Assembly (NCBI GenBank): GCA_003427395.1
Contig: BFEA01000027.1
Location: 2,024,015 to 2,088,014 of the forward strand
Length of the DNA stretch: 64,000 nt
From: Chara braunii
Lineage: Eukaryota; Plantae; Charophyceae
Direction of reading: 5' to 3'
This document shows positions 2,473 through 47,673 of this stretch, piece by piece. A program made the position numbers and the translations under genes. The notes under the pieces are model-generated. The model did not search any database. It had not been told where the DNA came from and saw only the letters and a list, made by a program, of their open reading frames with translations. Position 1 is the stretch's first letter. Every line of letters starts with the position of its first letter.

Positions 2473-2879
2473 TGTCACCCGTGGGAGGGTTGGTCGGGGC
2501 TCCTGTAACCTGCACAAAACAAGTCAGTCCACATCAACAAATACAAGTATCGTAGCCGACCGTGACCAATGCAAGAAGAAACTCACGAAACATTGTCTGG
2601 CAGAAATAACAGAAGTAGTTTCATTCAATCCAAAACAATAGGATGGGAAACACTCGTCCCGGCCTCAGCCGTACACCTCGCTCCTGTGTCTGGAAAGTCT
2701 GTCTGAGTCCCTACAGACCTAGTCAACAAACGTCGTCTAATCCTCCTCCCAATTAGGTGACGGCTGTAACGCGCTCGTCGATCCCAAGGAGTAGTGCTCG
2801 AACTCTCAGTGTCGGAAGTAGCCTCCCTCGCCCATCGGGGCCAAAGCTCCAGATCCACCGTGACCATAGTTCGGGTGGT

Positions 2880-3600
2880 GCCCCCTCCGAAGGCCTGCTT
2901 CACGAAAGTACCCGCTCGAGAAGCCCCCTTCGGACGTACCCCTTCGGAAAGCCCTCTTCACGAAAGTACCCCCTCGAGAAGCCCCCTTCGGACGTACCCA
3001 TTCGGAAAGCCCGCTTCACGAAAGTACCTCTTCGGGATATTATCCCCCCCTCGGTAAGATGCGGTGAAAGTGTCCGTCTGGTAAAGTACCCGTCCGGTAA
3101 GTGTGTCCGCCCGGTAAAGTATCTGCCCAGTAAGTGTATCCGCCCGGTAAAGTACCCGTCAGGTAAATGTGTCTGCCCAGTAAAGTACCCGTCCGGTAAG
3201 TATGTTCACCCGGTAAAGTACTCGTCAGGTAAAGGTGTCTGACCGGTAAAGTACGTCCAATCGTTAAAAATGGCCGCTCAGTAAAAAGTCTGTTCGGTAA
3301 AACACCCTCTTCGGTAAATGTGTCCCTTCACTAAAATACCCTTCCGCCGAGTGTCCCTCCGGTAGCGTACCCGTTCGGGAAGACAGCCCCCTCCATCGAG
3401 TGTCCCCGTCGAGTGTCCCCGTCGAGTGTCCCTCAGGTAGCGTACCCGTTCGGGAAGAAAGCCCCCTCCGTCGAGTGTCTCCGTCGAGTGTCCCTCAGGT
3501 AGCGTACCCGTTCGGGTAAAAGCCCCCTCCGTCGAGTGCTCTCGTCGAATGTCCCTCCGGTAGCGTACCCGCTCGGGTAAAAAAAAAAACCTCCGTCGAG
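2880..3600. repeat. Tandem minisatellites in LTR (~59-bp, ~30-bp and ~50-60-bp units)
   Basis: Repeated CCCTTCGGAAAGCCC...CACGAAAGTACCC, GGTAAAGTACCCGTC and GAGTGTCCCTCAGGTAGCGTACCCGTTCGGG units. Confidence 0.9.
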
Positions 3601-4039
3601 CCTGGTTCAGATAGCGTCCCTTCACGGGGCCAGACTAGTCTGGTTCCAGTTTTGTCCCAAAAGCCCTGTCTCGTCCCATGTCCCGATCCGCGCCCGATGG
3701 CCCCGGTCCGGTCCGATCTGGTGATCTGCTCCCCGTAACCTGGTTCGGCGAGATGGCCGATCTGTGCCCCGCAGCCCGGTTCTATTCAGAGACCCAAAGC
3801 CGCGTCCAAAGATGCCACCTTGCGTGCTGCCCACACGTTCCAGCTGCTTCCCTGTTCGTATGCCCACAGGCAAGGGGTGGTCGTGCTCAGTCGCGCGTTC
3901 GTGGGCGCGTGAGTGCGCGGTTGGCGCTCGTAGACGAAGGTAGCACCTCTGGGCCACTCTCCTCCTCCATACACTGATGCGCGCCGATGCGCGTAGAATC
4001 CCCTCCCCCGTGGCTCTCTCTCTCTTTCTCCAGCACGCT

Positions 4040-4910
4040 GATGTGCGAGGATGCGTGCTGGGTCCCCGTTGCTCTCTCTCTCCAATGAAGTGATGTGCGC
4101 GGACGCACGCTCGCTCCCCGCGCTCTCTCTCTCGAGTGAACTGATGCGAGCGGATGCACGCAGGATTCCCCTCCCCGAATCCGCTAGTGCGCGGGTGGCC
4201 ATGTTGCCTGTCCGCTGGTGCGCGAGTGCTCCCGCCCTCAGTCCGTTAGTGCGCGTGTCGGCACGCTGCCTGTCCGCATGTGCGCGGGTGCGCCCTCCCC
4301 TAATCCGCTAGTGCGCGGATGGCCGCGCTGCCAATCTCCAAGTGCGCGGGTGCTCCCGCCCTCGGTCCGTGAGTGCGCGGGTGATCGTGCAGCGTGTCCA
4401 CAGGTGCGCAAGTGCCCCCACCCCGAGTTCGCTAGAGCGCGGGTGACCGCGTTGCGTGTCCGCACGTGCGCGGTCGCTCCAGCCCCGGGTCCGCTAGTGC
4501 GAGGGTGACCGCGCTGCGTGTCCACAGGTGGGCGGGTGCTCCCGCCCCGAGTCCGCTAGTGTGCGGGTGACCGCGCTGCGTTTCCACAGGTGCGCGGGTG
4601 CACGTGCGCAGGTGCGTGAGCTGCGTGCCCAATCCGATGGTGCGCGCGTGCCCGCGCACAGGTGCATGAGCTGCGCGCCCGATCCGATAGTGCCCGAGTG
4701 CGCGGGCGGGGTTGCGCGCGGCTGCGCGCACGTGCGCCCGATCCCGACTGTGTGCGGCGAGGTTGCGCGCGGTTGCGCGCGGTTGCGCGCGGTTGCGCGC
4801 GGTTGCGCGCACGTGCGCCCGATCCCGGTTGTGCGCAGCTGCGCGCACGTGCGCCCGATCTCGACTGTGTGCGGACGGGGCTGCGCGCGGCTGCGCACAC
4901 GTGCGCCCGT
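4040..4910. repeat. CpG-rich degenerate tandem repeats in LTR, including a (GGTTGCGCGC)5 run
   Basis: Repeated CCGCTAGTGCGCGGGTGACCGCG units; 10-mer run at ~4761-4810. Confidence 0.9.
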
Positions 4911-5684
4911 GTGTGACTATCCACCTGTGTTACCTGGCTCTCCCCGTTCTTCGTGCGTGGTGCTCCCTCTCTCCTCCGTGCGCCTCCAACTCGTGCATGC
5001 GAGAAGTGTCCCGTGCCTAGGCCCAGTTCGGCTTATATGCTCTGCCGGGCCCTTCTCGGAGTGCAAGCCTTGGTCCTCGTGTGCTCTGTGGCAGCCGACA
5101 ACTTGCAGCGCCCCGGTACCGGGCCTGTGCCCGAGCCTGATTGGGCCTTCGAAAAGTTTCTGGCGAAAAGGGCTTCCCATCGGGAACTGAGCCCTTTGCA
5201 GCGCCCTGGTACCGCAACTGTTCCCGAGCCTGTCCCAGGCCTGCCCGGGCCTATGTGGTTCCCACACAGCTGCGGTGCCTCTCTTAGGGAAAATCCAGGC
5301 TGGGCCCCGTAAGTAAAAAAAAAAAAAACGGTCTCAAATCAATTGGGCCTAGGCGGACCCCTCGCCCTAGCGGAACCGCCCCTTCATAGGAAAATCCAAC
5401 CAGCCGAGTGGCCCCCTTGCCTGTGGCGCCCGCCTGCGTCATGGTCGGTGAGCCCCGGCTAGGTAAAGTAGCCCCCTTGATTGTACCATCGGTCTGCCCC
5501 GGTGTCGGCGAGTGTCGTCTCGTCGCACGATTGGTAAACAGTGGTGACCTCGATGGTCATGGTGTTGGTCTGCCTCATGGTCGGTGAACCCCGACCAGAT
5601 AGAATACTGTCGAGTGGAGTTGTTGTCGCGTGCCCTCTGAAAGGAAGTAAAGGGCGGCGTAGTATTGTAGCCGCCTGACAGCAG

Positions 5685-5703
5685 CCCCCCCCCCCCCATT
5701 CTC
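5685..5703 (-). promoter_or_regulatory. Polypurine tract (PPT)
   Basis: Minus strand reads GAGAAT-G13-CTGC immediately before the LTR start TGTCA. Confidence 0.85.
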
Positions 5704-5804
5704 GACGTCCTCGACGAGCGAGTATTGGGATTTGAAGGGGGAAAATTTTGCAAAAGATGTACGACTCCTAATCTCTACCCATCAACCCAAGATCATCCTC
5801 TTTG

Positions 5805-8800
5805 TCATGCTCGAATGCCTTTCTTTTGTTTTTCCTTCCTGTTTGACTTTCTCTTAGTGAGCTTTGTTTTGACGCCTAAGCGTTTGTCTGGTGGAGTACA
5901 TCTAACATGTCGACGATGGTTTTTTGTTTTTTCTATTGTTAGGGCATTTCTGATGACTTGTTTAGCCTTTTTCTTCTTCTCCTTTTTAGTCGCTGCCAAC
6001 TTCTTGATGTCGGACTTCGTGCTCTTGGTGTGTTTCCGTTGGATATGTCGGACCCCTTGGAGTTTGTCTTGTGTCCTTTTTGAAGATCGCCTAGAGGACT
6101 CCGCTACTTGAGAAGTGGTTTGTGCCGTAGTCTCTGTTGTATGTCGATTAGAGGGCTCTCCTACTTCGGAGGTGGTTGGTGGTGTGGGTTCTTCTAAGGG
6201 TTGATCCTTCTTCTTACCTTTTTCTAGGTGCTTATGGACCTCATCCTTTTGCCTGATTTTTCCCGTACGTGGAATAGCCTCTGTTCGGTCTTTAAATATT
6301 TTAAGACGGGCTCCAAACACCGGTTCCTTCCATCTTGTGCCGTCTACTTCCTCTATCAAGTAGTCTCCGCCTTCTAGTCTTTTGACCACTCTATAGGGCC
6401 CCATCCATCTGTTTGCTAGCTTCCCTGTCCATGTTCTCTCTAATGAGGAGTCATAGAGCAGGACGAGGCTCCCTGTAGGTATCCCTTCTTGCCTGACGCA
6501 AAGGTTCCTATCCCATCTTTCTTTCTTTTTCCCTCTTTGGATCTTTAATTTGTCTATGGTGTCTAGGATGTTATCCTGAAGAGTTTCGGCTATTTGTTTG
6601 ATTTTTGCGGCCAACAACTGTTGTCTAGTGGAGATCTCTTCCCGGTCAATCGTTTGCCAAGAGTCGATATGAAATTCTATAGGTAAAGGACAATGGCGTC
6701 CAAACCATAACGTATAGGGCGGGTATCCTGTAGTCGAGCGAACCGTAATGTTATCTGCCCAGACGGCGAATCTCAAATATTTTGGTCAGTTCTTCTTCTT
6801 TCCTTCGCACCATTTAGCGAGCGCGTTGACTAGAGACTGGTGCCCTCATTTTACAGGAGCGTTAGTTTGAGGATGATATGCTGTGGATAGCGACATTCAT
6901 ATTCCCTCTCTTTGGAGCAATTCTTGGACTTCCTTAGCCATAAACTCTGATCCCCTATCCATGACAATTTTTCCAACGCAGCCGTAGCGAATGATATATT
7001 CAGTCAAATAGTCGCTAACTGCTTTACCTGTTTTTTTACGTAGTAGTCATGCCTCCACGAATCCAGTCAAGTCGTCTCTAATGTCCATGATGTAATTCAT
7101 TCCGCCTTCTCCCTTTGACATTTTAACTAGGTCTACGTGCACCTTCTGGCCTATTGTTGTGGGATAGGAACGAAATAAGGGTTCTTTATATTTAACTACC
7201 GCTGTCTTCTGGCATTCCACACATGTCAGACAGTATGATTCTACGTCCTTATATAGGCCGTCCCACCAGTAGAGGTTCCTAATTTTTTCAAAAGTTCCTT
7301 TTACTCCTCTATGTCCTCCGACGATGCCATCGTGAAGTTCCGCTATTATCTCTCGGCGCTCGTCCTCATCACAGACCACTCTCATTAGCATTCCATTTTT
7401 AGGTGGTCTCTTAAAGAGGTGTTCTGCCTTGAGACAATATTGTTGAACTTCCTTCCTAAGCTTGTCATCTAATTCGATTTCTCCTATAAGATAATGCCCT
7501 ATCTTATGGTATTTGCCAATGTATAGATTTTCAAGAAATAAGGAAGTTCCTCCTGCAGCGGACTCTATTTTTAAGGAGCTTATGTCCATTTGTAAAAATT
7601 TGTCAATACCACTAGGCGACCCTAGATCTCCTTCTTCTAGAGGGATTCGCGAGAGACCATCAGCAACTAAGTTCTTAGCTCCGGATATTCGCTCTACTAT
7701 GTAATCAAACATCCTTATATGCATGAACCATCTCGTGACCGTTGAATCTGTCAATGAGAAGTCTTTTTGTAAGACAGCTGCCACTGCCGTCGGATCGACC
7801 CGCAGTATGAATCTTCGCCCGTAAATATAATGTCGAAAAATATTTAAACAATGTAAGACTCCTATAACTTCTTTCTTAAATTGTGAGTAGTTCCTTTCGG
7901 TGACGTTTAAGGTTTTACTTTCGAATCTGAGGGGCCTCTCATTGTCGGCCTGATTCTTTTGAGCTAAGACTCCACCAACAGAGGCAGGTCCCACGTCCGT
8001 ACATACGACGAATGGCCGATTTTTCTCGTCCTCGAAGTAAGGTACCCCAAGAACTTGACCTCCTTCCTTAAACTCATCTTTTAACGTTCTTACTGTATCC
8101 TCTTGTTCACTCGTCTATTGTCATTCTACTCCCTTGCGCAAGAGCTTTCGAAGGGGTTCGACCTTTGCAGCATAGCCTTTTATGAAATTCCTCCAGAATC
8201 CGACAACTCCTAGAAACTGGCGTATGTCAGTAATATGTCTGAGGGGTGTTGGCCATTTCATAAGTTTTTCTAGCTTTGCCGGATTTGGGCGTCTGCCATC
8301 CTTGTCGCAGATGTAACCTAATATCTTTATAGAGGATACCGCTTGTTTTTTATTCCACTGACCGTAAGGTTTGCATCCTCTAACTTCACTAATACTTTCT
8401 TTATATCTTCTGCGCGGGTGGCTACGAACTTTCTCACTCCAGGTCTTACCTCTGTTTCATCTTTGTCGTATGGTCCTTTGATCGGGAAGTCGTCCAGGAA
8501 AACCTCTACCAGATTTGGTATGAGCTCCCCTAAAACGGTGACCATCGCTCTCTGAAAGACAGCGACACCGTTAGCCCATCTCATGAGTACCACCATCATT
8601 TGAACTAAGCTTAATGGTGTATGCATCGCAGTTAGATGTCGATCTCTGTAGTCTAGCGGTATCTCATCATATCCTGAAAAAAAATAGCAGGCTGAATAAA
8701 TCAAACGTCCTGCTGAGCCTTCGGATAGAAGATCCGCGTTTGGGATTGATCCAACGTCTCTCACTGTGACCTTGTTTGTCTTCTGTAAGTCCTGTATCCA

Positions 8801-9319
8801 TCGTAGTTTGCCGTTTGATTTTCTTATGAAGAACCGGCGATTGGCGTAGGCGCTCTCACAAGGTTCCGCTACAAATGTCTTTATCTTCTCCTTCAGGAAG
8901 TCTACTATCATCTTTTTTTCCTTTTGCACACACTTACATTCTGCATCGTTCCATGGAGTGTGAGGGACTGTATAGATTCTTGCAGGTTTAACATATCGTG
9001 GATCTATTCGCCCTCTTTCTGCGTCACAAAAGGTTACTGCCTTGTTGCATGATCTTAATGTTTCTATTATGAGTTCTCTCTCCTTTTGCGTTACGTTTCC
9101 GTCACCTATATCCATTTCCTTTAACCTGTCTTCAGTGATTCTCCGCCCTTCAGTGGCCTTTCGTTCCCGGATCATCTGCGTAATTTCTTCTTCAGTGATC
9201 CTTATTTCCCCGGTCCTATCATGGCTAACCGCGGCTGGCTTGACTTTTTGGGCTACAGTTTTGTATCTCTTTCCCCCGCCGTGTGGGGGAATTCCTCCAA
9301 AAAAGAAAGGTTTATACAT
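5805..9319 (-). pseudogene. pol: Gypsy pol: reverse transcriptase, RNase H, integrase (disrupted)
   Basis: RT FLDD motif and GYDEIPL; RNase H GPASVGGVLAQ...NYSQFKKE...ADGLSR; integrase HHCC (HDGIVGGH...CVEC), VHVDLV, DRGSEF, YHPQTN and the WMGPY module. Frameshift near 8340 and stops at ~7047 and ~6790-6850. Confidence 0.93.
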
Positions 9320-11916
9320 CCACTGAATTCCTTGTCGTCAGCCTCTTTCTCATAAACTGTTCTGTCTACGACATACTTAGTTTCTAGGTCCTCAACGTCA
9401 ATCTTTTTTCCTCTTACTTTATGCGGTCCTAGTGTAAGGTCTTCAGATACTATTTTGCAACTTCTTGTGTTCAGTTGTCCTTTGTTTTGCAATGAGATCT
9501 TGTGACGGTTATCAAATTCATTCACGGTTTTCAAGGTAAGCCTGCTACCTTGAGGTCCATCGATGGTAACCGTCTGACTTCCGTCTCGTTTATTTTCGGT
9601 GGTGGCATTTACCCGTGTCAGCCATGTTCTTCCAAGAATTATTTCTGACGAGCAGTTCTCAACTGTAAAGACGGGCACAGTGACCTCAACTCCAGCAACC
9701 ACTATCTTGGCTTTGTGGCATACCCCGANCNCAGGTTGCTTGAGTTTGTTAGCGGNTATCATGGTCATAGCTACACTCCTGTCTACCTCTAAGCCAAGGT
9801 TTCTGGCCACCTTGTCCTCACAAACGGTGGACTCGGACCCGTCGTCGACTATAGCCTCCATCCCTATGCCATTGACTCTGACATTGAGTTTTGCACTAGC
9901 AAGGACGTAACAGTAGTTGCTTCCGCCTTCACTGGTTTGTACTGGTGTGTCTCCTTCGGTTAGTGCCGTTAGGACTGAGGTTTTCACCTCCTCCTTCTGT
10001 TGTCCAGAAGTTGTCTCTTGTAGCGGTACTTTAGTTTTCCTCATCATGCCTATTAATTCATCCCTTGTCGGGCCACAGCCTGCTATGAATTCCTTGAGGG
10101 TGATAGGAATTGGCATATTCATAGCCCTTCTTAAAGGTTCTCGTAAATCGACTTCGTCTAGCGAGCTTTTAAGGTGGAACTTCTTGGCTGCTCGTTTTCT
10201 AGGGAATTGTGGTGACTTGGGCGACTCAATTTGGTCGTCTGTCATAGGTTGATCTTGATCCTCTTTCTTTGTGTTGCTTGACTCGCCGACCCCGCCGATG
10301 TCGTGGGTACGTACGTAGACTTCTCAATTATTTTCAGCCTCCTCAAACTTAATGGATGAAATTCTTATACCTGGGCTTTCTGGTGGTTCGTCGAAGTCAT
10401 CTTCGAAAGTGACTCGGGAGATTTTGGCTGGTAATTGATCCTCGGATTGCTTACCCTTTGCTTCATTCATCCTCCTCCTTCGGATGTCTACATTAATCTT
10501 CATCGAGGGTAGGAAGGGTACCGGTTTGCCTTCATTTGCCCAAATGACGTATTTTTGATCGTCGAGTTCAATGATCCCTTCTTTTAGTGCATCTAACATT
10601 GCTTGGCAATCTCTTTTGCGGTGGTCTTCGTCTCTGCATTATATACATGCTTTATCATTCCACGTTCGCTTTGGGCTAGGGTCGGTTTTGTCGCGCGTGG
10701 CTTGGACAGAGTTTTCCTCCTTTCTTTGGTTATTACTTTGCAATCTCTCTACTGCCGCATTTAGTACTTTTATCTGTCTTGCCATCTCCTCTTCTCGTCT
10801 GTCTGGTCTTTTTGCTTTTATCTCATCTCTTGGCTTCCACCTGTTATCCTTTGTATTTGACCACTTGGAGGTTCCTCATTCCGCGTCGTTTCTTTTCCAG
10901 TCACTCCTGTTTCCTTTCCTCCATTCGCCCTCATTTTTGGTTGTATCCCCTCTTCTAGGTGAGCTCGCGTAGGTGTCCCTTCCTTCGGTTTTGGGTCTCC
11001 TATCCTCGAATTGCGATTTTCCTCCTCCCTTTTCTGTGGTTACGCCTTTTCCTAGGTTGTCAAGAACCCTCGCGAGGTGTGCTTTCGCGCTTTGGCCTTC
11101 GGTGTCATGGGTTAAAGTTTTGACTTGGCTGAACGTTACCTTAGAGGGAAGATCCCTCATAATCTTGTCTCGCTTTTCTCGAGACAAAAATCCTAGGAAT
11201 ATTCCGCACCTTTCTATTTCGCTCATAAATTCACCTTCTACTAGAGGGTTCGAAGCCTTTTCATATCTCCTTGCGAATGCTACTAGACTCTCATCGTCCT
11301 GTTTTTTTATTTCTTTTAGATCTTCTATTGAATAGGATGTTTCATGCCATGCGAAGATTCTTGTAATCCGTTCTTTGAATATTAACCAACGCCAACTGTC
11401 CGGAATGGCTTCTCTAACTTCGCGATCTATCTTGGGGGTTGTGTGGTGGAGTAGATTTATAATCATCTCCTGATCGCTCCATTCCGCTCTCATCCCCAGT
11501 ACCTCCCAGTCGTCTAAAAATTCTAAAACATTCTTTCATGTGAAGATTGTTTGGATTCCGGACAGTGTCGGTAATTGGAAGGCTTGTGCTCCCAGAAAGG
11601 GGGATATGTAAGAGTCTGGTGCATATGCCATTCTGTAAGGTTGGCTCGTGGTTTCCCTATATGGTTCTCTTGTAACGGGATCCGAGAATCGGGCTACTCT
11701 ATTTTTGTTTATAACGTCTTTCCTCCACCCTTCACTCTTAGAAGTGCGTTCCTCGAGTTCTGTGGCTGTAGTTTCTAACTCTTTTAGGGCCTTGCTCAAA
11801 TTTTTGGCGTCCTTTGTGACATCAGTTGTCATTTTCCTAACTGGGGTGCTCATCCTTGATTCTTGTGTTTTGACTTCGCCGCCTATCGAAGATAGATAGA
11901 CTCCTTCCGCATCCAT
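9253..11916 (-). pseudogene. gag: Gypsy gag + aspartic protease (one frame, several premature stops)
   Basis: ORFs starting 11916, 11493, 10599 and 10245 share one frame. Motifs: F-x-x-KNVLEFLDDWE, zinc knuckle CI*CRDEDHRKRDC (~10605-10650), protease AIVDDGSE. Confidence 0.88.
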
Positions 11917-11925
11917 ATTTTTTTC

Positions 11926-12428
11926 TCACTCTTCCAAAAGTTGATCCAAGGCAACTTTAACTCTTTCCGTCGATTCTTCTAGTAGCTCTTGCAATGTGTT
12001 GAAGTCTTCGTCTTTCCCTTCAGCTTTGACGACTAAGGCGGTAGCTAAAACGGTTTGTAAGTAGCGTGAGTTGGCCTCCAACGTATTTAGGGATATGCCA
12101 TCAACTATTACGTTGGCGAGTTCTCCTAGAGCTCGAGCGTCCTCTCTTAATTTTTCTACAGATGTGGCTATCGTTTCTCTCCAGGTGCGTGGGATTGTTT
12201 GTCCGCTAGGGTTTACAGTGAGGATTTGTATTCTTACGAGAAAAAGCTCTCCTGCAGCGTTCCAGATGACACACTTCCTGACTTCTATTACTGCTTTTGT
12301 GGCGCACTCGTTTTCCTCTTCTTGGCTTAATTGCTCATTATGTACTGCTTCCACCACGACTCGTACTAAGGACCCTTCTGTTTCTGCTCTGCCTGAGATA
12401 CTAAATTTTTGCCTTCTAGGTTCGACAT
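11926..12428 (-). pseudogene. Accessory ORF I, unknown (family beta, paralog of ORF D); 1-nt frameshift near the N-terminus
   Basis: ATG at 12428 overlaps the previous stop (TAATG). Length 503 nt, one short of a codon multiple. Ends 9 nt before the gag ATG. Confidence 0.6.
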
Positions 12429-12948
12429 TAGTCCTTCCTTTGTTTGTTAGTGTCTTCTCGGTCTTGCTTCAGGCGTCTAGCAATGAAATCATTTCGCCAT
12501 CCTATAATGTTCTCCCTTTCTTCTCTATAGATTGCGACAAGACGTTCGATGTTTTTTTCCAGTCTATTTAAGTTGGCTTCGTCCGTAGAACCACGTCATT
12601 CATGGTATTTTGTTAGCGACTCTTCGACCTTCCTCTCAATTGGGTCTAAGTATACTTATAGGATGACATCAATTTTTGGATCTCTTCCCCGTACACGTGT
12701 GTTCGTGCTTCTTGAATTGCCTTTTCCTTCTCTATCTCGCACTTCATCCATCTCTCGACCCAGATTATCACACTGTAGGCTATGCGATTCTATGTTCTAA
12801 CTTGTGCTAGTGTCCTTGGTCTTTCGCGCTGTATAGCTTCTTGTGCTAATCGTCGACAATCTAATGTGTCTAGTGCTCTAGAGGTTTGGATCCGAATAAT
12901 GGAAGTTATAGTCCCTGCGAAGAATACCCGATTCACTTCCTCTTACAT
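12428..12948 (-). pseudogene. Accessory ORF H, unknown helical protein, decayed
   Basis: Protein-like frames (EEVNRVFFAGTITSIIRIQ...; YLDPIERKVEESL...RLEKNIERLVAIY) with stops and a frameshift. Confidence 0.45.
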
Positions 12949-12980
12949 CAGTTACTGCTCCCGGTATTATTGAGTTCGTT

Positions 12981-13409
12981 TTATGCCCTCTTCACTTTCC
13001 ATACGAGGTCTATTACGGCCGACCATTCATTGTTAGCGAGCGTAAGCCCTTCAACTGTTGGTGACGGTATTCCAATGAAAGGCCTAACGTAGGTACTCTA
13101 CGAGAAATTCGTCCTTAATTGTTGGAGTCTTCTCTTCTTGTCATGCACTATGTTCGAGGCCCGTTGCCAACAACGACCTTTTTCGTCTTCCTTAAACCTA
13201 TGTTGCGGCACGTATATTCCCACATTATACTCATCAAGGTTGATGAAGGACTAGGTGATGACATACATACCATCAATCCTCCATCCCTGACTTTTTAGAC
13301 CTTCGTATCTCACGATCTCATATGGGATCACTGCTCTCTTCGATATAGAGTTAAGGGAACGGACCAACTTCCTCGACTTCCCCTCATCTAGTTTCCTACA
13401 CCTCCTCAT
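12981..13409 (-). pseudogene. Accessory ORF G, unknown (family alpha), 142 codons with two internal TAG
   Basis: Manual translation ...IPYEIVRYE...MYVIT*SFINLDEYNVGIYVP...GRCWQRA...; aligns along its length with ORF E. Absent from the ORF track. Confidence 0.75.
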
Positions 13410-13487
13410 CCTTGGTGAAGTCCCCTAGCATGGCTTCTAATTCTGCTCTTGGTCTTGGAAGCGTTCTCTTTCTTGGTCTTCTTTGCA

Positions 13488-13817
13488 CTACTCCTCCACT
13501 GCCCTCACGACTCCAATCAATTTTCCTCTGTCGTCTTTTATCTCGTGCTCACCTTCTACTCCGAACAGGCCTGTGTCAAGGTAGAGTTCCCCTTCTTGAT
13601 CTCGTAGGCAAGAGGCTCCTCTCTTAATCTCTATCAACCCTGTTTCATTAGATCGAACTCTCCTACAGATCGTCGTGCCTAGAGTATACAAGTCCTCCTG
13701 GGTCCATTCTGTCAAAAGTCTGAGCAACTCTTGGGATCTCCACCTATCATGATCACGCTGTCTTAGTTCATTTGATATATCCCCTCCAAGCTGCCTATTC
13801 TCGTTCCCTCTGGTCAT
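13488..13817 (-). CDS. Accessory ORF F, unknown (109 aa; may read through to ~13395)
   Basis: ATG start overlapping the end of ORF E by 23 nt. Confidence 0.55.
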   Translation of the reverse strand: MTRGNENRQLGGDISNELRQRDHDRWRSQELLRLLTEWTQEDLYTLGTTICRRVRSNETGLIEIKRGASCLRDQEGELYLDTGLFGVEGEHEIKDDRGKLIGVVRAVEE

Positions 13818-14307
13818 TCGGGTTATGGTGTCGGTTTATGAAATCAATTATTAAACCTCGACCGATCCCTGTCAATGCTTCGTAAGGAATCCGCGGCCTA
13901 GACAAGTCTTCAAAGATCCTGATTTCGGTACTCCAAGCGACTTCTTTCTTTAAGGAAAGGAGTCTATCCTTCTCGTCCTCCACCACTTCTCTCGCTCTTT
14001 GTCAGCAACGTCCATACGCTAAATCGTCCGATCTTTTCGTTGGTAGGTAAATGCCTACGTCTCTTACCTCAGTCCCTAGGAAGCGCGCGGTCATAACATA
14101 GAGGCGGCTCAGTTCCCATGCGATGTCGACCATCTCATAGGCTTCCACTTCATACGGAAACTCCTCCCTTCTTCCTAGGGTACTCAAGGATGCACACACC
14201 GCATCAAACTTCTCTTGTGGCGGTCGGTTCCCAGCGATGATCTTATTATCCCACTCTTCGAGTTTCTCTGCAGACTTCTTATGCCTTACTCGTTCATGAC
14301 CCAGCAT
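13795..14307 (-). pseudogene. Accessory ORF E, unknown (family alpha), 170 codons with one internal TGA
   Basis: Track ORFs 14002..14331 and 13795..13986 are in frame. GRC*QRA matches GRCWQRA in ORF G. Confidence 0.75.
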
Positions 14308-14324
14308 TCTTTTGCCACGCTTGC

Positions 14325-14594
14325 CTAACACAACCGGGCTCGTTCCCTAACCAGACAATAGTATCTTTTTTCAGAGGTCTTTAGTCTTTCTACCTTCAGT
14401 AGATAACTGATCTCGGTTTGGTTGGTAATTACCCTCAAAGCCGACTCCCTCATACGATCGAAATAAGGTTGTATGAGTTGAAGTTCTTCAAACCCAAAGA
14501 GATCTATATCAGGAATTCGGAGGGTGCCCTCAACTTTTACCATTCTCTCTTCCGCGATAGCCCTGAAGGAGAATTGTTCCCTAAGACCCGGCAT
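14325..14594 (-). CDS. Accessory ORF D, unknown (family beta), 89 aa
   Basis: ATG 1 nt after the ORF C stop (TAGGATG); similar to ORF I. Confidence 0.65.
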   Translation of the reverse strand: MPGLREQFSFRAIAEERMVKVEGTLRIPDIDLFGFEELQLIQPYFDRMRESALRVITNQTEISYLLKVERLKTSEKRYYCLVRERARLC

Positions 14595-14595
14595 C

Positions 14596-15015
14596 CTACT
14601 GACCCCAACTCCTTGCTCTGAGCGTCATATTAATTAAAGGCTCCCAGTTCTTGTCGTCTGTAAAACTGTTAGGTAGACTAGGTTCTGGAACCCCATAGAA
14701 TAGAACCGGTGATGAGTCACTGATTACTTTCTCTCCTCTCCTTTCTAATTCCTTCCTTTCCTGGCTGATGACGGTTTTAATTCAGTTTCTAAACGACGCT
14801 CGTTCAGTTCCCCTCTCACTCAATAGGGGTATATAGGGTCTAATGTCGTATTCCCCTGTATCAAGGTGTTTTACCACAAGGACATGGGCTTTCCCAGGAG
14901 CGTGGCGTTCCTCCATTGATATACAGCTTTCTATTTTGTAAGGAAACGCCCCCCCACTAGTAATAGGGACTAAGGTGTCTAGGGCCGTTGTGACCCTAGG
15001 GCAATAACCTGACAT
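14596..15015 (-). pseudogene. Accessory ORF C, unknown (family alpha), 139 codons with one internal TGA
   Basis: GGAFPYKIES...HVLVVKHLDTGEYDIRPYIP; reads in frame past 14782 to the TAG at 14596; homolog at 59004-59345. Confidence 0.75.
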
Positions 15016-15082
15016 TTTCGATTCGCTATCCTTTTATCGTTACTCTTCTGCGCGTTCGTCCTCACAGGCAGCTTCACCGAGG

Positions 15083-16210
15083 TCACTCTAGGCTCATCCG
15101 GACACCCAGTCGTGACCATCGTCCCTCGACATATTCTTCTATTTCGGTAGCGCTCCTGAAGTACCCCACCCTTTCCTCAAGAAAAGTTGCGACGTCTTCC
15201 CACTCTTCACGGTCGTCGTCCCTTAATCGTTCCCACTCGGCTAGATCCCAATCTTCTTCCCCATAGTATATGTCCTCATCGTTTACTGCCTCTGTCCCTT
15301 CGTAGTATGTCCGGAGTTCGTAGAACCCAATGAGTGAACCTTCCCTAACCGACGAGTCGTATCCAGGAGTCCCGTATAACTCGGCTATACCAGCTAGGTG
15401 GCTCGGCGGCTCCCTCAGGGCTCTATCCAAAGCGGTCCAGAATTCGGCCGATTGATCAAACCTCAGTGCCTCTCTAAGATCTCTAGGTGAAATAGCTCTA
15501 ATTAGCTCTACCAATTCCAAAGTCGACTCCCCGAACCTAGGCCCTTCCTTCCAGAGCGTGTAGTAGGCGTGATCTTCGTCACTGCTCCTCAAAAGGTTTC
15601 TAATCTCGAGGAAAGCTCGGTAGACCTCAATAAGGCGGCCAAGTCCCCCTAGAAATCCTTCCAAGACGAAACCCGGGACGGGCAGCCTCAAAGTTTGTTC
15701 GGGTTGGGGCAAGAACCCTTCTCTAGCCAGTCGAAGCGAGACCACTACCGACCTATAGTCCCTGTCGTAGCAGCGTTCCTTCCCCCTTAGCTTGTCGACC
15801 ACTTCCTGCAGTATGCGTCGCGTTGTTACCTCGTCTGCCCAGGTATGAGAGTCGAGACTCGGAATTACCCCTAAAACCTGATCCCAGCGACTTCGTTGTA
15901 CAGCTTGGAAAACTATGTCCGCTAGAACGGAAGACTGATAGTAGAGGAAGCCTCTGACCGCTAATTCCAGGGATTCTTTTATAAGCCCGCCTCTCCTGTC
16001 GAACTCACACCCTACCTGGGGCGCGACCAGCAACCAGACCCCCGACCTCAACAGGATAGATCTTCACTCCTTATCTACTTTATCCAGATATCCTCACCTA
16101 ACAGCTTGCCCAGGCAAGGTAAATTCCACCCAATCTTCTCCAATGAACTCGGGTTCCCTATAGTCGAAGTGACAAAGCTCAACTGGGTGCTCTATCTCGT
16201 CGTGAGGCAT
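15083..16210 (-). pseudogene. Accessory ORF B, unknown, ~375 aa with acidic C-terminus; two early TGA
   Basis: ATG directly follows the ORF A stop (TAGATG); in frame with the 322-aa track ORF 15083..16051. Confidence 0.7.
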
Positions 16211-16918
16211 CTAGTCGTCCACGGAGCTCCCGTCTAAAATCCGGCCCCTGTTTATCTCCCCACTTGTCTCCGCTCTCCTTACCTCGTCTCTGACCCTAAA
16301 CACGATTCTGCGCAACTGTCTACGCGTGGGAATTGCTCGGTCTAGACAGTAGGTAAGTAACCAGGCTCGCTCGACGGTAGTTATCCTGAACTGCGTCGCC
16401 CTCTGCACTACAGCTCGTAGCCTCTGATGTCTCACCTCATCGCCAAAGACTACTTCTGTGAGGAATCTAGGAACGATAACCGCTCTCACAGACGTAGCTC
16501 TAGGCAGCTCCCAGTCGTACGCAAAATGCACCGTGTAGAAGGCTACCGAGTCGGCTTCACTCCTCTTCACAAACTCACTGAACACTCTCGCACCGAATCT
16601 ACATGCTAATGATGTCAGGCATAAGAGAGTGTGACAATGACGGGCAGTCTCTATCACTAGATACCTCCACTCCTGGTCTGAGAGATATAATCTAACATTC
16701 ACTTCTGCGCGAAGGGGTTCGCTAGCCCTGTCCCTTCTAACACACACTCTAGGCTCCGCCTCAATTCTCACCCACAGGAAGACGCCCTCGCGTATGACTA
16801 GACCTCGTTGTACGGACGACCTATACTTGCTCGATCCTTCCAAAGGAAGACTAATGATGTCACAGAAGCCGCTACGTTCAACGAGATGTATTCGAGACTC
16901 CGATTCGATGTAAACCAT
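16211..16918 (-). CDS. Accessory ORF A, unknown, 235 aa intact
   Basis: Open frame with its ATG 2 nt downstream of a strong 3' splice site (TTTTTTATTTTGCTTAG|GAATG). Confidence 0.75.
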   Translation of the reverse strand: MVYIESESRIHLVERSGFCDIISLPLEGSSKYRSSVQRGLVIREGVFLWVRIEAEPRVCVRRDRASEPLRAEVNVRLYLSDQEWRYLVIETARHCHTLLCLTSLACRFGARVFSEFVKRSEADSVAFYTVHFAYDWELPRATSVRAVIVPRFLTEVVFGDEVRHQRLRAVVQRATQFRITTVERAWLLTYCLDRAIPTRRQLRRIVFRVRDEVRRAETSGEINRGRILDGSSVDD

Positions 16919-17219
16919 TCCTAAGCAAAATAAAAAATGGTTCTCTCTCAGTATGTCACTCCCTGTGCCACTCTCAGACTGTTGAGCTCAAAGACCCCCA
17001 CGACAGGCCTCCTCTGATCACCCCTGTATCCCTTCAAGACGTCAACAGGCCTACAAGAGAACCGCCCTCTGGCGTATCTCTTCCTACCCTCGTGTCAAGA
17101 AGGAGGTCGGATCAATGTGCCATCGTCGCTGGCCTACCTTCCCTGTCGCAACCTGAGCACGAGCCGGCCAACTCATGTGCTCTAGGGTGGACCGAAGTCA
17201 CACGCGAATAGGGAGGCGG

Positions 17220-20200
17220 TGTCTCACTCGCGGGAGGGTCGGTCAGGGCTCCTGTAACCTGCACAAAACAAGTCAGTCCACATCAACAAATACAAGTACC
17301 GTAGCCGACCATGACCAATGCAATAAGAAACTCACGAAACACTGTCTGGCAGAAATAACAGAAGTAGTTTCATTCAATCCAAACCAATAGGATGGGAAAC
17401 ACTCGTCCCGGCCTCAGCCGTACACCTCGCTCCTGTGTCTGGAAAGTCTGTCTAAGTCCCTAGTCAACAAACGTCGTCTAATCCTCCTCCCGATTGGGTG
17501 ACGCCTGTAACGTGCTCGTCGATCCCAAAGAATAGTGCTCGAACTCTCAGTGTCGGAAGTAGCCTCCCTCGCCTATCGAGGCCAAAGCTCCAGATCCACC
17601 GTGACCATAGTTCGGGTGTGCCCCCTCGGAAGGCCTGCTTCACGAAAGTACCCGCTCGAGAAGCCCCCTTCGGACGTACCCCTTCGGAAAGCCCTTTTCA
17701 CGAAAGTACCCCCTCGAGAAGCCCTCTTCGGACGTACCCCTTCGGAAAGCCCGCTTCATGAAAGTACCTCTTCGGGATATTATCCCCCCCTCAGTAAAAT
17801 GCGGCGAAAGTGTCCGTCTGGTAAAGTACCTGTCTGGTAAGTGTGTCCGCTCAGTAAAAATGGCCGCTCGGTAAAACGTCTATTCGGTAAAACACCCTCT
17901 TCGGTAAATGTGTCCCTTCACTAAAATACCCTTCCGTCGAGTGTCCCTCCGGTAGCGTACCCGTTCGGGAAGACAGCCCCCTCCGTCGAGTGTCCCCGTC
18001 GAGTGTCCCTCAGGTAACGTACCCGTTCGGGAAGAAAGCCCCCTCCGTTGAGTGTCCCCGTCGAGTGTCCCTCAGGTAGCGTACCCATTCGGGTAAAAGC
18101 CCCCTCCGTCGACTGCTCCCGTCAAGTGTCCCTCTCGTAGCGTACTCGTTCGGGTAAAAAAAACCCTCCGTCGAGTGTTCCGGTCGAGTGTCCCTCCGGT
18201 AGCGTACCCGCTCGGGTAAAAAAAGTCCCCTCCGTCGAGCCTGGTTCGGATAGCGTCCCTTCACGGGGCCATACTTAGTCTGGTTCTAGTCGATGTCCCA
18301 AAAGCCCTGTCTCGTTCCATGTCCCGATCCGCGCCCGATGGCCCCGGTCCGGTCCGATCTGGTGATCTGCTCCCCATAACCTGGTTCGGCGAGATGGCCG
18401 ATCTGTGCCCCGTAGCCCGGTTCTATTCAGAGACCCAAAGCCGCGTCCAAAGATGCCACCTTGCGTGGTGCCCGGACGTTCCAGCTGCTTCCCTGTTCGT
18501 ATGCCCACAAGCACGGGGTGGCCATGCTCAGTTGCGTGTTCGTGGGCGCATGAGTGCGCGGTAGGCGCTCGTAGTCGAAGGTAGCAAGCACCTCTAGGCC
18601 ACTCTCCTCCTCCATACACTGATGCGCGCCGATGCGCGTAGAATCCCCTCCCCCGTGGCTCTCTCTCTCTCTCCAGCACGCTGATGTGCGCTGGGTCCCC
18701 GCTGCTCTCTCTCTCCAGTGAAGTGATGCGCGCGGACGCACGCAGGCTCCCCGCGCTCTCTCTCTCGAGTGAACTGATGCGCGCGGATGCGCGCAGGATT
18801 CCCGCGCTCTCTCTCTCCAGTAAACTGATGCGCGCGGATGCGCGCAGGATTCCCCTCCCCGAATCCGCTAGTGCGCGAGAGGCCACGCTGCCTGTCCGCT
18901 AGTGTGTGAGTGCTTCCGCCCTCGGTCCGTGAGTGCGCGTGTCGCCCCGCTGCCTGTCCGCAGGTGCGCGGGTGCGCCCTCCCCTAATCCGCTAGTGCGC
19001 GGATGGCCGCGCTGCCAATCTCCAAGTTCGCGGGTGCTCCCGCCCTCGGTCCGTGAGTGCGCGGGTGATCGCACAGCGTGTCCGCAGGTGCGCGAGTGCC
19101 CCCGCCCCGAGTTCACTAGATCGCGGGTGACCGCGCTGCGTGTCCGCAGGTGCGCGGGTGCTCCAGCCCCGGGTTCGCTAGTGCGCAGGTGACCGCGCCG
19201 TGTGTCCGCAGGTGCACGGGTGCTCCCGCCCCGAGTCCGCTAGTGCGCGGGTGACCGCCCTGCGTTTCCGCAGGTGCGTGGGTGCGCACGCACAGGTGCG
19301 TGAGCTGCGCGCCCGATCCGATGGTGCGCGCGTGCGCGCGCGCAGGTGCGTGAGCTGCGCGCCCGATCCGATAGTGCCCGAGTGCGCGGGCGGGGTTGCG
19401 CGCGGCTGCGCGCACGTGCGCCCTTTCCCGACTGTGAGCGGCGAGGTTGCGCGCACATGCGCCCGATCCCAACTGTGCGCAGGCGGGGCTCCGCGCGGCT
19501 GCGCGCACGTGCGCCCGATCCCGACTGTGTGCGGACGGGCAGCCGCGCCCGTGCGCCCGTGCGTGACTATCCACCTGTGTTACCTGGTTCTCCCCGTTCT
19601 TCGTGCGTGGTGCTCCCTCTCTCCTCCGTGCGCCTCCAACTCGTGCATGCGAGAAGTGTCCTGTGCCTGGGCCCGGTTTGGCTTATATGCTCTGTCGGGC
19701 CCTTCTCGGAGTGCAAGCCTTGGTCCTCGTGTGCTCTGTGGCAGCCGACAACTTGCAGCGCCCGGTACCGGGCCTGTGCCTGAGCCTGATTGGGCCTTCG
19801 AAAAGTTCCAGGCGAAAAGGGCCTTCCCATCGGGAACTGGGCCCTTTGCAGCGCCCTGGTACCGCAGCTGTTCCCGAGCCTGTCCCAGGCCTGCCCGGGC
19901 CTATGCGGTTCCCACATAGCAGCGGTGCCGCTCTTAGGGAAAATCCAGGCTGGGCCCCGTAAGTAAAAAAAAAAAAAACGGTCTCGAATCAATTGGGCCG
20001 AGGCGGACCCCTCGCCCTAGCGGAACCGCCCCTTCAAAGGAAAATCCAACCAGCCGAGTGGCCCCCTCGCCCGTGGCGCCCGCCTGCGTCATGGTCGGTG
20101 AACCCCGGCTAGGTAAAGTAGCCCCCTTGATTGTACCATCCGTCTGCCTCGGTGTCGGCGAGTCCTGACCACGCAAAATAACGCCAAAGAGAAATGTCAC

Positions 20201-20386
20201 CATTCTGCCCCTTCGGAGTGTCGTCTCGTCGCACGATCAGTAAACAGTGGTGACCTTGATGGTCATGGTGTTGGTCTGCCTCATGGTCGGTGAACCCCGG
20301 CCAGATAGAATACTGTCGAGTGGAGTTGTTGTCGCGTGCCATCTGAAAGGAAGTAAAGGGCGGCGTAATATTGTAGCCGCCCGACA
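17220..20386 (-). repeat. 5' LTR of the Gypsy element
   Basis: Colinear with 2473-5680; starts TGTCGG on the minus strand; differs by substitutions and repeat copy number. Confidence 0.9.
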
Positions 20387-45175: not shown

Positions 45176-47451
45176 CTGATTTCAAGGCAGACAACATAAC
45201 CCCTTTTGTTTTTTTTTCTTCGTTTCTATTATATTATTAATTATTTCTATAACCGTTCACTTGATTTGAAGGCAGACTTCCGAAGACAGCGACTGCTGAC
45301 AACTGTTTTTTTTTTTAGTTCGTCCTGTCTGGCCAGCCGTGTTGAAAAGGGGCGGTGGTTGTGGAGGAGTCTACGGCAGGAGGGCGGAGGACACAGAGTC
45401 TGGTGTGGGTGAATTACGGATGTAATTGGGACTATGGCTGATTTGATGGTCCTGACCATTTTTTATGTGTGCAGGTCACAACGACGAGCAACAAGTTCGC
45501 CGCCGACATGGTCAAGGAGAGATTTGATCAAGGAGCAGCACGTTCGGACCCCTCAGACCCCCTTTAAAAAAAAAAAAAAAAAAAAAGTCTCGCACGGCTT
45601 TGCACGGTGCGGTACACGTAGCGCACGTCCCCGCACATTTCTGCACCCGCACAGCCACCCCCCGCACGGATCTGGTCTGTGTGGGTGCAGAATGTGCGGA
45701 GATCGAGCACCTCCCGCACGCCGTACTTCACACCGCACCGCACGAATGTGCGGCTCATGCGGTTGCAAGTATGGTTTGTATAAATCGAACAATAAGATCT
45801 AGTATCTCAGGGCCATCTAGGCTCACCTTCTCATGTTCTCTAACACGCCTTTTATACCATAACACCCATAATATTGCTTTATGGCCAATTTCAAAAAGAT
45901 TATTTTGAAAACTGAAAATTTGATATAGTGAGATCTAGGGGTTTCCAATACCCCAGTAAAATGGTCCTCCAATCCCAGGGCCAGTTTATACCTGTTAGGT
46001 CTCTCCAAGTACAATCTCATCTTCTCCATAAATGGACTGAACCCGGACATTGCAAGATTTGGGATAGGTAGTTGATGATAATAAGCATGTCACCCCTCAG
46101 TATGAGAGACAAAGAAAACTCTAATACGATAAATATAGGTGGCCAAAAAAAAAATTACCTTGTTTGAAGGGGAGGGTGATATAAGATGTTCCTTGTTGAT
46201 TTTGACCAGGCCTACCATAGCTTCTTGTGGAGTAAGATGAATCACTTGTCCCACCATCTGTTGCCCATTAGGCTGGACTCCTATCACCCAATCTCCCTCC
46301 TTGATTTTTTACCCTTTTTTCAAAATTTGTACCCAAGCTAAGGGGATGGAAAAAATAATCTGATCTAGATTTGAAGATAGGTGATGGGCATATCTCAATG
46401 TAGATCTCAGTTGATCAACGGTCTTCCAATCTTTGGTTTCTGAATTCCATAAATCTTTAATTCTGAGTACCCCCCTTTTGACCCACAAGGACCAGGGTGG
46501 AACTGAACTATTAAAAATGCAGCTATTTAAGTCTGTAATCCATCTGTTGCCAAAAAGAGGCTGCCTAAGTATCTCCTCACATCGAGAAGGAAAGGGCCTA
46601 TTTGGCAATGAAAGACATCTCCATATTTTCAACAAGGAAGTCCACATATTATCCAAGCTAAGATCAACTTTGGCGGCCCCGCGCACCCCCTCTTCTCTGG
46701 AATGCGTCCTGGGAATGGTCCAATAACAATCTTCAATCCAAGTGAGGGGGTGTATATCATCTGGACATGAAGGACCTAACCAACGAATTTGTTCACATAC
46801 TAGCACTTGTCAGGGTTTGTCAGTAGACAATATTATTTTTTTTATCCTTTGCAATGATAAAGCCTGATAGTGAAGAGTTGGATCCAGGATCCTCAATCCT
46901 CCTCTCGTCCTTGGTTAGACTAGGGAGAGCCAGACTACTCTTGGAATCACCTTGTCCTGTTCATGATCACCTCTCCATAAGAATGCTGACACTTGTCTTC
47001 GTAAAGTTTTCGTACGCTCTTTGTTGATCGACCAACGTGTTGATTTGTACCGTATTGAGGCAAGGACAACATTGTTAATTATAAGTGCACGCCCAAAAAT
47101 TGAGATATGTAACATTAAACGGTTACAAATTTCAGGAATACCAGAGGAAGCAACTCCTATTACCTCTATGTTTGCAGATGATCTCACTGTTACGATGGAG
47201 GCATCAAAATCGAACATGAAGGAGATTCAGGCTATGATAGAAAAAAATTCTCAGATATCTGACATGGTGGTTAATTGGGGAAGTGAAACACAAGGCTGGT
47301 GGATTCATTCTAATGGGGTACGTCCTCCGGAACACCCTAAAGTTGGTTGGGTTCCCTTGAATGCTCCGGTGCAAATTTTGGGAGTTTCTCTTACAGCAAA
47401 TGGTAAAACAACTACTAATGATGATTGTATCTCCAAACCAGCTCTGGAAAA

Positions 47452-47673
47452 AACGTCCACCCGGTCTTTCGTTGTTCAAAGTTGGCTCTTTTTGTTTCGG
47501 CAGAATGCGCCGAGTTTCCCGGGCGACGATCGCAAGACCCACGCTCCATGGACAGTTTTCAGGAGGTTAGCGACATCATCTCGCAGCGGCGCTACAGCAC
47601 CAAGCCGACGGAGTACTTAGTACACTTTTCCTATTGTAGCCATAAGGCTGACCGTTGGTTGACCCGTGCTGAG
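47452..47673 (+). mobile_element. Chromoviral Gypsy integrase C-terminus/chromodomain relic
   Basis: VHPVFRCSKL (end of GPY/F module) followed by EVSDIISQRRY...EYLVHF...DRW. Confidence 0.75.

Follow-up and report, generated by a model that had tools for sequence, protein, structure and literature searches.

The window analyzed here, a 64,000-nt stretch of Chara braunii DNA, contains one decayed member of a Ty3/gypsy family that is present in many copies; in it, eight accessory genes, three of them paralogous, are likely real and are probably translated serially from an LTR-driven RNA. We give this overall reading a probability of roughly 0.55. That the frames of the cassette represent real, conserved genes is very probable, and serial translation from one RNA, suggested by the tight junctions and the AUG-poor A and B frames, has about an even chance. 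An earlier note on this DNA had proposed a retrotransposon lineage carrying a multi-gene accessory payload, and this is borne out by the family-wide occurrence of the region, by the open homologues of the C, E, and G paralogues, and by the position of frame I before gag in other subfamilies.

The element lies on the minus strand, is ~17.9 kb long, and has ~3.2-kb LTRs that differ by 5.4% (158 mismatches in 2928 columns, 94.6% identity in ungapped blocks, by blastn and alignment). The LTRs end in TG...CA, the right one having 2 nt inserted at one of its ends, and the polypurine tract is a G-run at ~5685-5700 adjoining the 3′ LTR. The gag product is 35% identical to P0010, which itself matches Retrotrans_gag and Ty3_capsid; with gag placed in this way, Pfam recovers the Ty3/gypsy order of gag followed by PR-RT-RH-INT. 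Pfam matched neither a second RNase H nor a chromodomain in pol, the RNase H matches being to RT_RNaseH families on one stretch. The leader contains no TGG-type (tRNA-type) primer-binding site, its best self-priming match is 8 nt, which is chance level, and there is no tRNA gene in the whole window. The features are as follows (frame letters are those of the earlier note, the correspondence being uncertain for G-I):

17220 to 20386, minus strand: 5′ LTR, ~3.17 kb, with several tandem arrays; matched to the left LTR by blastn and alignment
16919 to 17219, minus strand: leader, T-rich 3′ splice-acceptor-like end, AG at 16922-16921
16211 to 16918, minus strand: ORF A, 235 aa, 0 stops, single Met
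15083 to 16210, minus strand: ORF B, 375 codons, 2 internal stops, acidic
14596 to 15015, minus strand: ORF C, 139 codons, 1 internal stop, C-type copy of the triplicated domain
14325 to 14594, minus strand: ORF D, 89 aa, 0 stops
13795 to 14307, minus strand: ORF E, 170 codons, 1 internal stop, E/G-type domain copy
13488 to 13817, minus strand: ORF F, 109 aa, 0 stops, positional counterpart of D
~13409 to 12981, minus strand: ORF G, 142 codons, 2 internal stops, start uncertain, E/G-type domain copy
12469 to 12942, minus strand: region H, 5 stops in 157 codons (P 0.06), a doubtful ORF with no homologue
~12468 to 11926, minus strand: ORF I, 180 codons, 0 stops, its open stretch lacking an ATG in the present copy
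10324 to 11916, minus strand: gag, ATG at 11916, 3 stops in 530 codons, zinc-knuckle-like motif
5760 to 10245, minus strand: pol, with protease, RT, RNase H, H2C2, rve integrase, and SH3-like matches (Pfam)
2473 to 5680, minus strand: 3′ LTR, TGTCA...TGACA ends
59001 to 59417, plus strand: fourth, decayed domain copy (tblastn with P0013, E 1e-15)

Between the 5′ LTR and gag there are ~5 kb of minus-strand frames, of which A-G and I are open. These eight frames contain 6 stops in 1439 codons, compared with 9 in 1371 codons of gag-pol, and their stops are well under expectation (Poisson P 1e-6 to 6e-3, values that are optimistic because the frames were chosen for being open, most of all for the short D and F). 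Of the approximately nine ORFs counted previously, eight are retained and H, with its five stops and no homologue among 1.84 billion proteins searched, is doubtful. Most of the junctions that had been described were seen in the sequence: A and B abut at TAGATG (0 nt apart, frame kept), C and D are 1 nt apart at TAGGATG, E and F overlap by 23 nt, and I is separated from gag by 9 nt with the frame kept. D and E are 17 nt apart. The TAATG said to join H and I was not found in that role, as the four TAATG sites in the region (13650, 13227, 12430, and 12340) are not stop-start junctions of cassette frames; closest to such a junction is a TGATG (12950-12946), next to which most other copies show a 1-nt indel. 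Head-to-tail packing holds at the 0-23-nt junctions but is looser elsewhere, with gaps of 67 nt at B/C and of 56-78 nt up to the next ATG at F/G.

Sequence comparison identifies C, E, and G as paralogues of one ~125-aa domain that has no named family. C is 40-42% identical to P0006 and P0013, E is 42% identical to P0005 (E 2.7e-24, 1.84 billion proteins searched), and G is 33% identical to E and 42% to P0005. That search returned 8 matches, to C, E, and I, and 2 more were found by profile. Six homologues, gene calls on contigs of 0.5-1.5 kb, consist of the domain alone; they are open, 121-164 aa long, and five of the six terminate no more than ~8 residues from the end of C or G. The split between C-type and E/G-type domains has tree support of 98/98. 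The nucleotide alignment of D-E with F-G suggests duplication of a two-gene unit (504 nt, 290 identical; score 128 versus 50±8 for shuffled sequences), and no protein-level match was found between D and F or between I and the triplicated domain. The cassette would have grown by tandem duplication, first separating C-type from E/G-type domains and then doubling the D-E/F-G unit. A merging of the ORFs into one or two known proteins, which the earlier note had considered, was not seen for C, E, and G.

The region also recurs across many contigs, rather than being missing from other copies of the family. In each of four DNA runs, all from one sample, 1826-2557 contigs cover 30 of 30 bins, the other copies being known from short contigs only. 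At least two of the six internal stop codons of the cassette are private to the present copy, as they fall among the 40 near-fixed differences listed. The three common indel sites within the cassette are confined to spacers or a frame boundary (P 7e-5 to 2.5e-3). The C/D spacing differs from copy to copy, which indicates that C and D are not frame-locked. The listed nucleotide differences have no third-position excess (8/11/10 and 11/13/12); this flat pattern is as expected where neutral decay dominates among close copies, and supports no claim of selection. In three Chara braunii gene models that run on into gag, the N-terminus is 30-32% identical to ORF I, and by this homology relatives of I precede gag in other subfamilies, including a distant one; the related subfamilies include those behind CBR_g24151, g30075, and g57135.

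Searches with the other frames were empty. No homologue was found for A at near or greater lengths (word-based search, proteins ≥129 aa) or in metagenome contigs, for B in Pfam, PHROGs, PDB sequences, viral contigs, or the Atlas (no usable match), or for D and F in the smaller libraries searched. Exact look-up in the protein collection returned none of 10 window proteins, and Pfam placed no family, TAV and movement protein included, on 14 pieces or 4 read-through frames. Domain searches of phages, viral contigs, and prokaryote genomes gave nothing. The description of the cassette as virus-like did not gain support, there being no match in the parts searched of viral contigs, phage records, and PHROGs, and none in BFVD at E≤0.001. 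The maximum 19-residue Kyte-Doolittle hydropathy is 0.01-1.42 across A-I, no membrane segment is predicted from hydropathy in any ORF, and the proteins are soluble by this measure. No catalytic motif was recognizable in them.

The predicted structure of the triplicated domain (pLDDT 77.5) is alpha/beta, and the models give it no assignable fold, gelsolin-like being the best description available. Likeness to gelsolin/villin repeats reached a best Z of 5.6 (rmsd 3.5 Å, 78 aligned) and also 6.5 (rmsd 6.3), both below the Z of 7-8 usual for unrelated models; no sequence match was found at E≤10. Likeness to Ulp1/CE-clan proteases was seen with model 1 (Foldseek E 4e-3 to 0.1, Z 3.5-3.6) and was weaker with model 2. 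With the better of the two models, no Ulp1-like structure was among the top 50 matches, and the domain alignment has no invariant His and no Cys-Gly pattern. A structure search with P0005 in the Atlas gave no lead (best feature score 0.83, TM ≤0.50). A PC4-like appearance of the end of G, noted by eye, had no Pfam or PDB support, and L001 was rejected as a chance match on a single 8-residue word. It is improbable that any named function applies to the cassette proteins. They are most likely host-interaction factors diversified by an arms race, and our guess would be adaptors against silencing or for particle routing. That the modeled domain has a gelsolin-like fold engaging actin in the giant streaming cells of Chara is very unlikely.

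How the cassette might be translated is suggested by its AUG content. A and B together contain 11 AUGs versus 20.1 expected (P~0.013, uncorrected for 17 regions), and B has 930 nt without ATG in any frame (16209-15280). C-I are not depleted (48 versus 46.6), and gag and pol have an excess. With 61 AUGs upstream of it, gag would have to be reached by reinitiation downstream of I or made from an RNA of its own. A spliced leader likely brings ribosomes to A, and the downstream proteins would likely be made by leaky scanning past the AUG-poor A and B and by termination-reinitiation at the 0-23-nt junctions. By analogy, termination-reinitiation as in caulimoviruses and caliciviruses is plausible. 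In TURBS, a UGGGA motif lies 40-87 nt upstream, within structure. UGGGA was observed upstream of 1 of 11 starts examined (D, -52) in this decayed copy, the junction windows contain no hairpin and none folds better than z -1.6, and the leader is unstructured (fold z -0.59). The B/C and F/G gaps are longer than the ~30 nt over which TURBS reinitiation operates according to passages of PMC10275272.

A different possibility, to which we give appreciably less weight, is that the genes are real but that each, or each pair, has its own spliced or internally started RNA, as do complex-retrovirus accessory genes or env-type ORF3s, with the packing reflecting genome compaction. Two strong acceptor-like sites occur in 7.1 kb versus 0.22 expected, one of them 2 nt before the ATG of A, and weaker ones are found at 17259, 14685, and 14618 (24 nt before D), the last two of which would allow splicing. 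YAG stands immediately 5′ of the ATG at both tight junctions, no reinitiation signal common to the junctions was found, and there is a precedent in rotifer LTR-element ORF3s, reportedly made from spliced messages (in the relevant part of PMC5408684). Against this, no equally strong T-rich acceptor precedes B, C, E, F, G, I, or gag, nor does any site of that strength occur before D or H, and separate RNAs do not require the AUG depletion of A and B. RNA from the element is scarce, one run yielding 197 of 16.7 million reads and two other runs 9 and 12, and the reads are unable to demonstrate a single transcript; they contain no splice joint, at a depth too low to weigh.

Two further readings concern what the frames are. 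It is rather improbable that there are fewer, longer genes, with A-B one protein and I an N-terminal extension of Gag, joined by read-through or split in this decayed copy only. Both pairs share a frame, I has no ATG of its own here and is joined to gag in the three gene models, and one 15%-diverged contig (X2 record 9) spans I/gag without a gap. Yet an ATG follows the stop after 0 nt at A/B and 9 nt at I/gag, the three gene models lack the gag N-terminus of the present copy and were apparently spliced by the predictor, the continuity of P0011 into gag is not significant (z 0.9), X14 contigs have a longer A-run in the I/gag spacer, and C-G would be left untouched. Less probable still is a foreign origin of the 5 kb, by capture of a gene block from a virus or another mobile element that has been a passive passenger since the last burst of the family and is no longer under selection. 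The fourth domain copy sits in an unrelated AT-rich island (57-60 kb) of packed small ORFs with no gag or pol, the third-position excess is absent, and more abundant relatives with the same LTR and leader diverge from near 16970. This reading is opposed by the intactness of the cassette, which equals that of gag-pol, by homologues that are open at 30-42% identity, by the presence of I before gag even in a distant subfamily, by common indels that spare the frames, and by the lack of a viral match in the searches made. The stop of the fourth copy overlaps the next ATG (TAATG, 59415-59419).

The preferred reading, that of eight accessory genes probably translated serially, invites comparison with known systems. 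In the sections available of PMC6431247 and PMC7264820, the LTR retrotransposons described so far have one or two extra ORFs, as does Ogre (PMC6317226, PMC6431247, in part). Like Ogre/Tat elements (OTA, eORF-5′F), as far as those accounts go, the present element has large, multi-kb LTRs with tandem arrays and an extra coding region 5′ of gag; compared by features rather than phylogeny, it differs in having eight ORFs, most below the 250-codon limit given in PMC6317226, internal paralogy, no match to a second (archaeal-type, aRH) RNase H, and no Pfam match such as plant mobile domain. The Drosophila MDG1 group (412, mdg1, Stalker) also has small accessory ORFs 5′ of gag, sORF1 and sORF2, on an unspliced LTR-to-LTR RNA with translation shown (10.1101/2025.03.14.642691, in excerpt), but these are two rather than eight, and sORF2 is membrane fusogen-like whereas hydropathy here reaches 1.42 at most. 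Caulimoviridae have a polycistronic pregenomic RNA, with reinitiation by TAV in CaMV and leaky scanning in RTBV/badnavirus (portions of PMC5902531); closely spaced ORFs and fused stop/start codons are shared, and the AUG-free ~900 nt of RTBV resembles the stretch in B. The element is not a member of the Caulimoviridae, as it has LTRs and integrase and neither a TAV/movement-protein match nor a structured leader was found, although by analogy it may work similarly. Five of the eight junctions here have stop and start within ~20 nt, as in TURBS of caliciviruses and SART1 UAAUG coupling; the latter are bicistronic systems (PMC10275272, PMC5902531, each in part), and no UGGGA or hairpin is common to the junctions here. 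VANDAL/VANC anti-silencing elements, with tandem arrays in non-coding parts, and DNA transposons with Ulp1/OTU proteases (PMC2836005) likewise carry accessory proteins, on the partial accounts used, but no sequence match to either was found.

These data indicate that, among gypsy elements with extra 5′ ORFs, the element is a new and unusually gene-rich form; the literature searched holds no description of it, and the Chara genome paper and the additional files of PMC6317226 may bear on this. Surveys with a 250-codon floor would overlook seven of the eight ORFs. With a paralogue-expanded cassette before gag, the boundary that separates retrotransposons from complex reverse-transcribing viruses, caulimoviruses among them, becomes blurred, and there is a natural test case for the route by which ribosomes of the plant lineage arrive at a ninth cistron. 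The triplicated domain forms a new family, compact and foldable, and knowing its host target would reveal the needs of a transposon in an algal genome that is large and rich in transposons. A bolder picture, which we hold at somewhat less than even odds, is of a charophyte LTR lineage with an operon-like RNA, from which eight accessory proteins and Gag would be made by reinitiation and leaky scanning, and of a new threefold-amplified protein family common to other mobile DNA; a gelsolin-like, actin-engaging role for that family would, as above, be very unlikely.

The two flanks of the element differ, with no target-site duplication. In 39-52 contigs per run, this LTR end is followed by sequence that the left flank resembles, and the LTR is therefore probably common to an adjoining element.

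An earlier note had described ORFs A–I, some 5 kb of same-strand frames between a 5' LTR and gag, as about nine head-to-tail ORFs forming a multi-gene accessory payload. Our data support the payload: the accessory cassette is real, is unusually rich in genes and includes a new paralogous family. Eight near-open frames were observed from LTR to gag (codons/stops: A 235/0, B 375/2, C 139/1, D 89/0, E 170/1, F 109/0, G 142/2, I 180/0), where chance would give 5.5–18.9 stops in each, for frames picked post hoc. Pooled, they hold 6 stops in 1439 codons, a density like that of gag plus RT-RH-IN (9/1371). Region H is doubtful as a ninth ORF, having 5 stops in 157 codons (P 0.06), and the packing is loose at B/C (67 nt) and from the F stop to the next ATG (F/G, 56–78 nt). 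The D/E gap is 17 nt. The claimed TAGATG (A/B), TAGGATG (C/D), E/F overlap (23 nt) and I/gag spacer of 9 nt are all present; the claimed H/I TAATG is absent, the four TAATG sites of the region all lying away from stop-start junctions. G/H and H/I are ill-defined in this decayed copy.

The element carrying the cassette is as follows:

2473-20386, minus strand: LTR retrotransposon carrying the cassette
~2473-5680 and ~17220-20386, minus strand: its two LTRs, with several tandem arrays within

Its pol follows the Ty3/gypsy arrangement of protease, RT, RNase H, H2C2 and rve integrase; a Pfam domain search matched neither a second RNase H nor a chromodomain. Its gag shares 35% identity with a gene model which itself matches Retrotrans_gag. 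All homologues with names are Chara braunii gene models, which makes that alga, or a close relative of it, the likely host. The element is Ty3/gypsy, at most a possible member of Ogre/Tat, and not a caulimovirus. A polypurine tract is present; no TGG-type (tRNA-type) primer site was found after the 5' LTR (17200-17219), nor a target duplication at the element ends. Across 2928 aligned columns the LTRs have 158 mismatches (112 transitions), and this 5.4% divergence gives an uncertain age because the left LTR probably belongs also to a neighbouring element, since its outer flank (2446-2472; 350-2472) resembles sequence after the same LTR end in 39–52 contigs per DNA run. The flank points to a tandem arrangement, the LTR being shared with a more abundant family, or else to a preferred target. 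RNA reads also show flank-like sequence after this LTR end. The integrase end (5760-6250, minus strand) has a Lys/Thr-rich basic tail of ~150 residues without a chromodomain match. At the gag/pol junction (10245-10324, minus strand) the two are in different frames; the in-frame ATG of pol lies 78 nt past the gag stop and its open frame extends back to the gag end, so that either frameshifting or reinitiation may express pol.

Other copies were viewed as contigs of ≥80% likeness from a single sample, perhaps the one behind the assembly itself, for which four DNA runs were used. The cassette is a family trait, because contigs (2131, 2514, 2557 and 1826 per run) filled 30/30 bins in all four runs; the concern that other copies might lack the region was thus not borne out. 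Summed contig depth suggests copies in the tens, a rough reading against which the mapping tool itself cautions. Contigs lie several-fold deeper on the leader (16970-17220) than on the cassette, and loose ends occur near 16970-17040: the family has relatives with the same LTR and leader and a different interior. The internal stop codons 14782 and 16064 are among the 40 best-supported differences listed, below which rank 532 others; nearly all other copies differ at these two codons. Five indel rows among these differences mark four sites:

17214: leader
14596/7: C/D spacer
14313: D/E spacer
12945: G/H boundary

All three sites within the cassette fall outside frames (P 7e-5; 2.5e-3 with H as non-coding) among the listed differences, the G/H boundary being partly our own definition. 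Codon positions of the differences, 8/11/10 (29/40 rows, H and spacer rows dropped) and 11/13/12 in a second listing (36/40, 4 dropped), show no third-position excess. This either speaks against selection or is uninformative; close copies differ mostly through post-insertion decay.

A frame with C, E, H and I (X for stops) searched against 1.84 billion proteins gave eight matches (C three, E two, I three), with none for H. C, E and G are paralogous and form a new family: E–G identity is 33% (E-value 4e-20, from a comparison of limited size), and shuffle tests gave z 8–32. With the database homologues P0005 and P0013, identities were 42% for G–P0005, E–P0005 and C–P0013, and 33% for P0005–P0013. 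A profile search added two homologues. Six homologues stand alone (121–164 aa, on short ENA contigs): the three C-type proteins end two residues short of C's end, P0005 and P0015 start ≤5 codons from E's start and end ≤8 residues from G's end, and P0009 has a shorter front and a back 17 residues longer. The tree splits C-type from E/G-type at 98/98, with the window copies on long branches. D-E and F-G are alignable as DNA, the stop of D lining up with that of F, and are likely a duplicated two-gene unit; no protein-level match between D and F was found. A fourth copy lies elsewhere:

59001-59417, plus strand: decayed domain copy, ending in TAATG

It sits in an island (56900-60100, plus strand; 34–38% GC) of small, packed, decayed same-strand frames, with no gag/pol found and no Pfam match in six frames; the domain is therefore common to other DNA. 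The island may represent the cassette of an old relative, or else a viral or mobile remnant.

Two AlphaFold2 models of the domain from a ten-row alignment (pLDDT 63.6 and 77.5, pTM 0.72) concur in predicting a helix, three strands, a long helix, a strand, a proline loop and a helix. Foldseek at E≤0.001 found no match in PDB for model 1, nor in BFVD for either model; weak rows include CE-clan proteases (adenain E 4e-3). Gelsolin/villin repeats ranked top in VIA-align for both models at Z 5.6 (second look 6.5, rmsd 6.3), below the Z 7–8 typical of unrelated models. Sequence profile searches supported neither family, and no cassette ORF has membrane-like segments.

ORF I, open without any ATG in this copy, matches the N-termini of CBR_g24151, g30075 and g57135 at 30–32% identity. 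Because each of these runs on into gag, I-type sequence holds the same pre-gag position in a distant subfamily. The spacer (11917-11925) is A-rich, with a longer A-run in contigs of run X14, and could aid initiation or reflect mere oligo-dT priming.

On the cassette's mechanism, which like its function we infer, we favour at about even odds a combination in which a spliced leader would join upstream of A, leaky scanning would cross the AUG-poor A/B, and the tight junctions would allow reinitiation with few signals. With 61 AUGs between LTR and gag, gag would be out of reach by simple scanning. A+B has 11 AUGs against 20 expected (P~0.013, uncorrected), none in 16209-15280; C–I are not depleted and gag/pol has an excess. 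A T-rich acceptor-like site stops 2 nt short of A's ATG, one of two of that strength in 7.1 kb (0.22 expected). The alternative, about equally probable, is that each ORF has its own ORF-specific RNA; weaker acceptor-like sites lie at 17259, 14685 and 14618. A UGGGA (TURBS-like) motif precedes 1 of 11 starts, and 0 of 16 junction windows showed structure. Poly(A) RNA gave 197 of 16.7 M reads on the region in run X6 (28/30 bins), and 9 and 12 in X5 and X7, with no splice joint seen in any. Only one X6 read reaches ≥99% identity, so the reads come from other copies. X6 first mates in the cassette ran + 0.84 vs - 0.35, in a library of unestablished strandedness, and low read-through or DNA carry-over may be their source. 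X14 contigs, taken as RNA by guess, span I and the gag start.

In published accounts, Ogre elements (PMC6431247, PMC6317226, PMC7264820, PMC11963269) and MDG1 sORF1/2 (10.1101/2025.03.14.642691) have one or two extra 5' ORFs, in contrast to eight here; Burro holds many domains within a single polyprotein, and rotifer elements of different classes share ORF3 types (PMC5408684). Termination-reinitiation is there named for non-LTR, not LTR, elements (PMC5902531), and AUG-poor A+B resembles RTBV leaky scanning (PMC5902531) and green-algal bicistrons (PMC11291117). No description of the element family was found in the literature covered, which did not include the Chara genome paper itself. Elsewhere in the window, a ~70-nt repeat occurs at least seven times within 25500-53100, where by eye there are also several non-LTR (LINE)-like fragments, on both strands, and what looks like a chromodomain-bearing fragment at 47425-48255.
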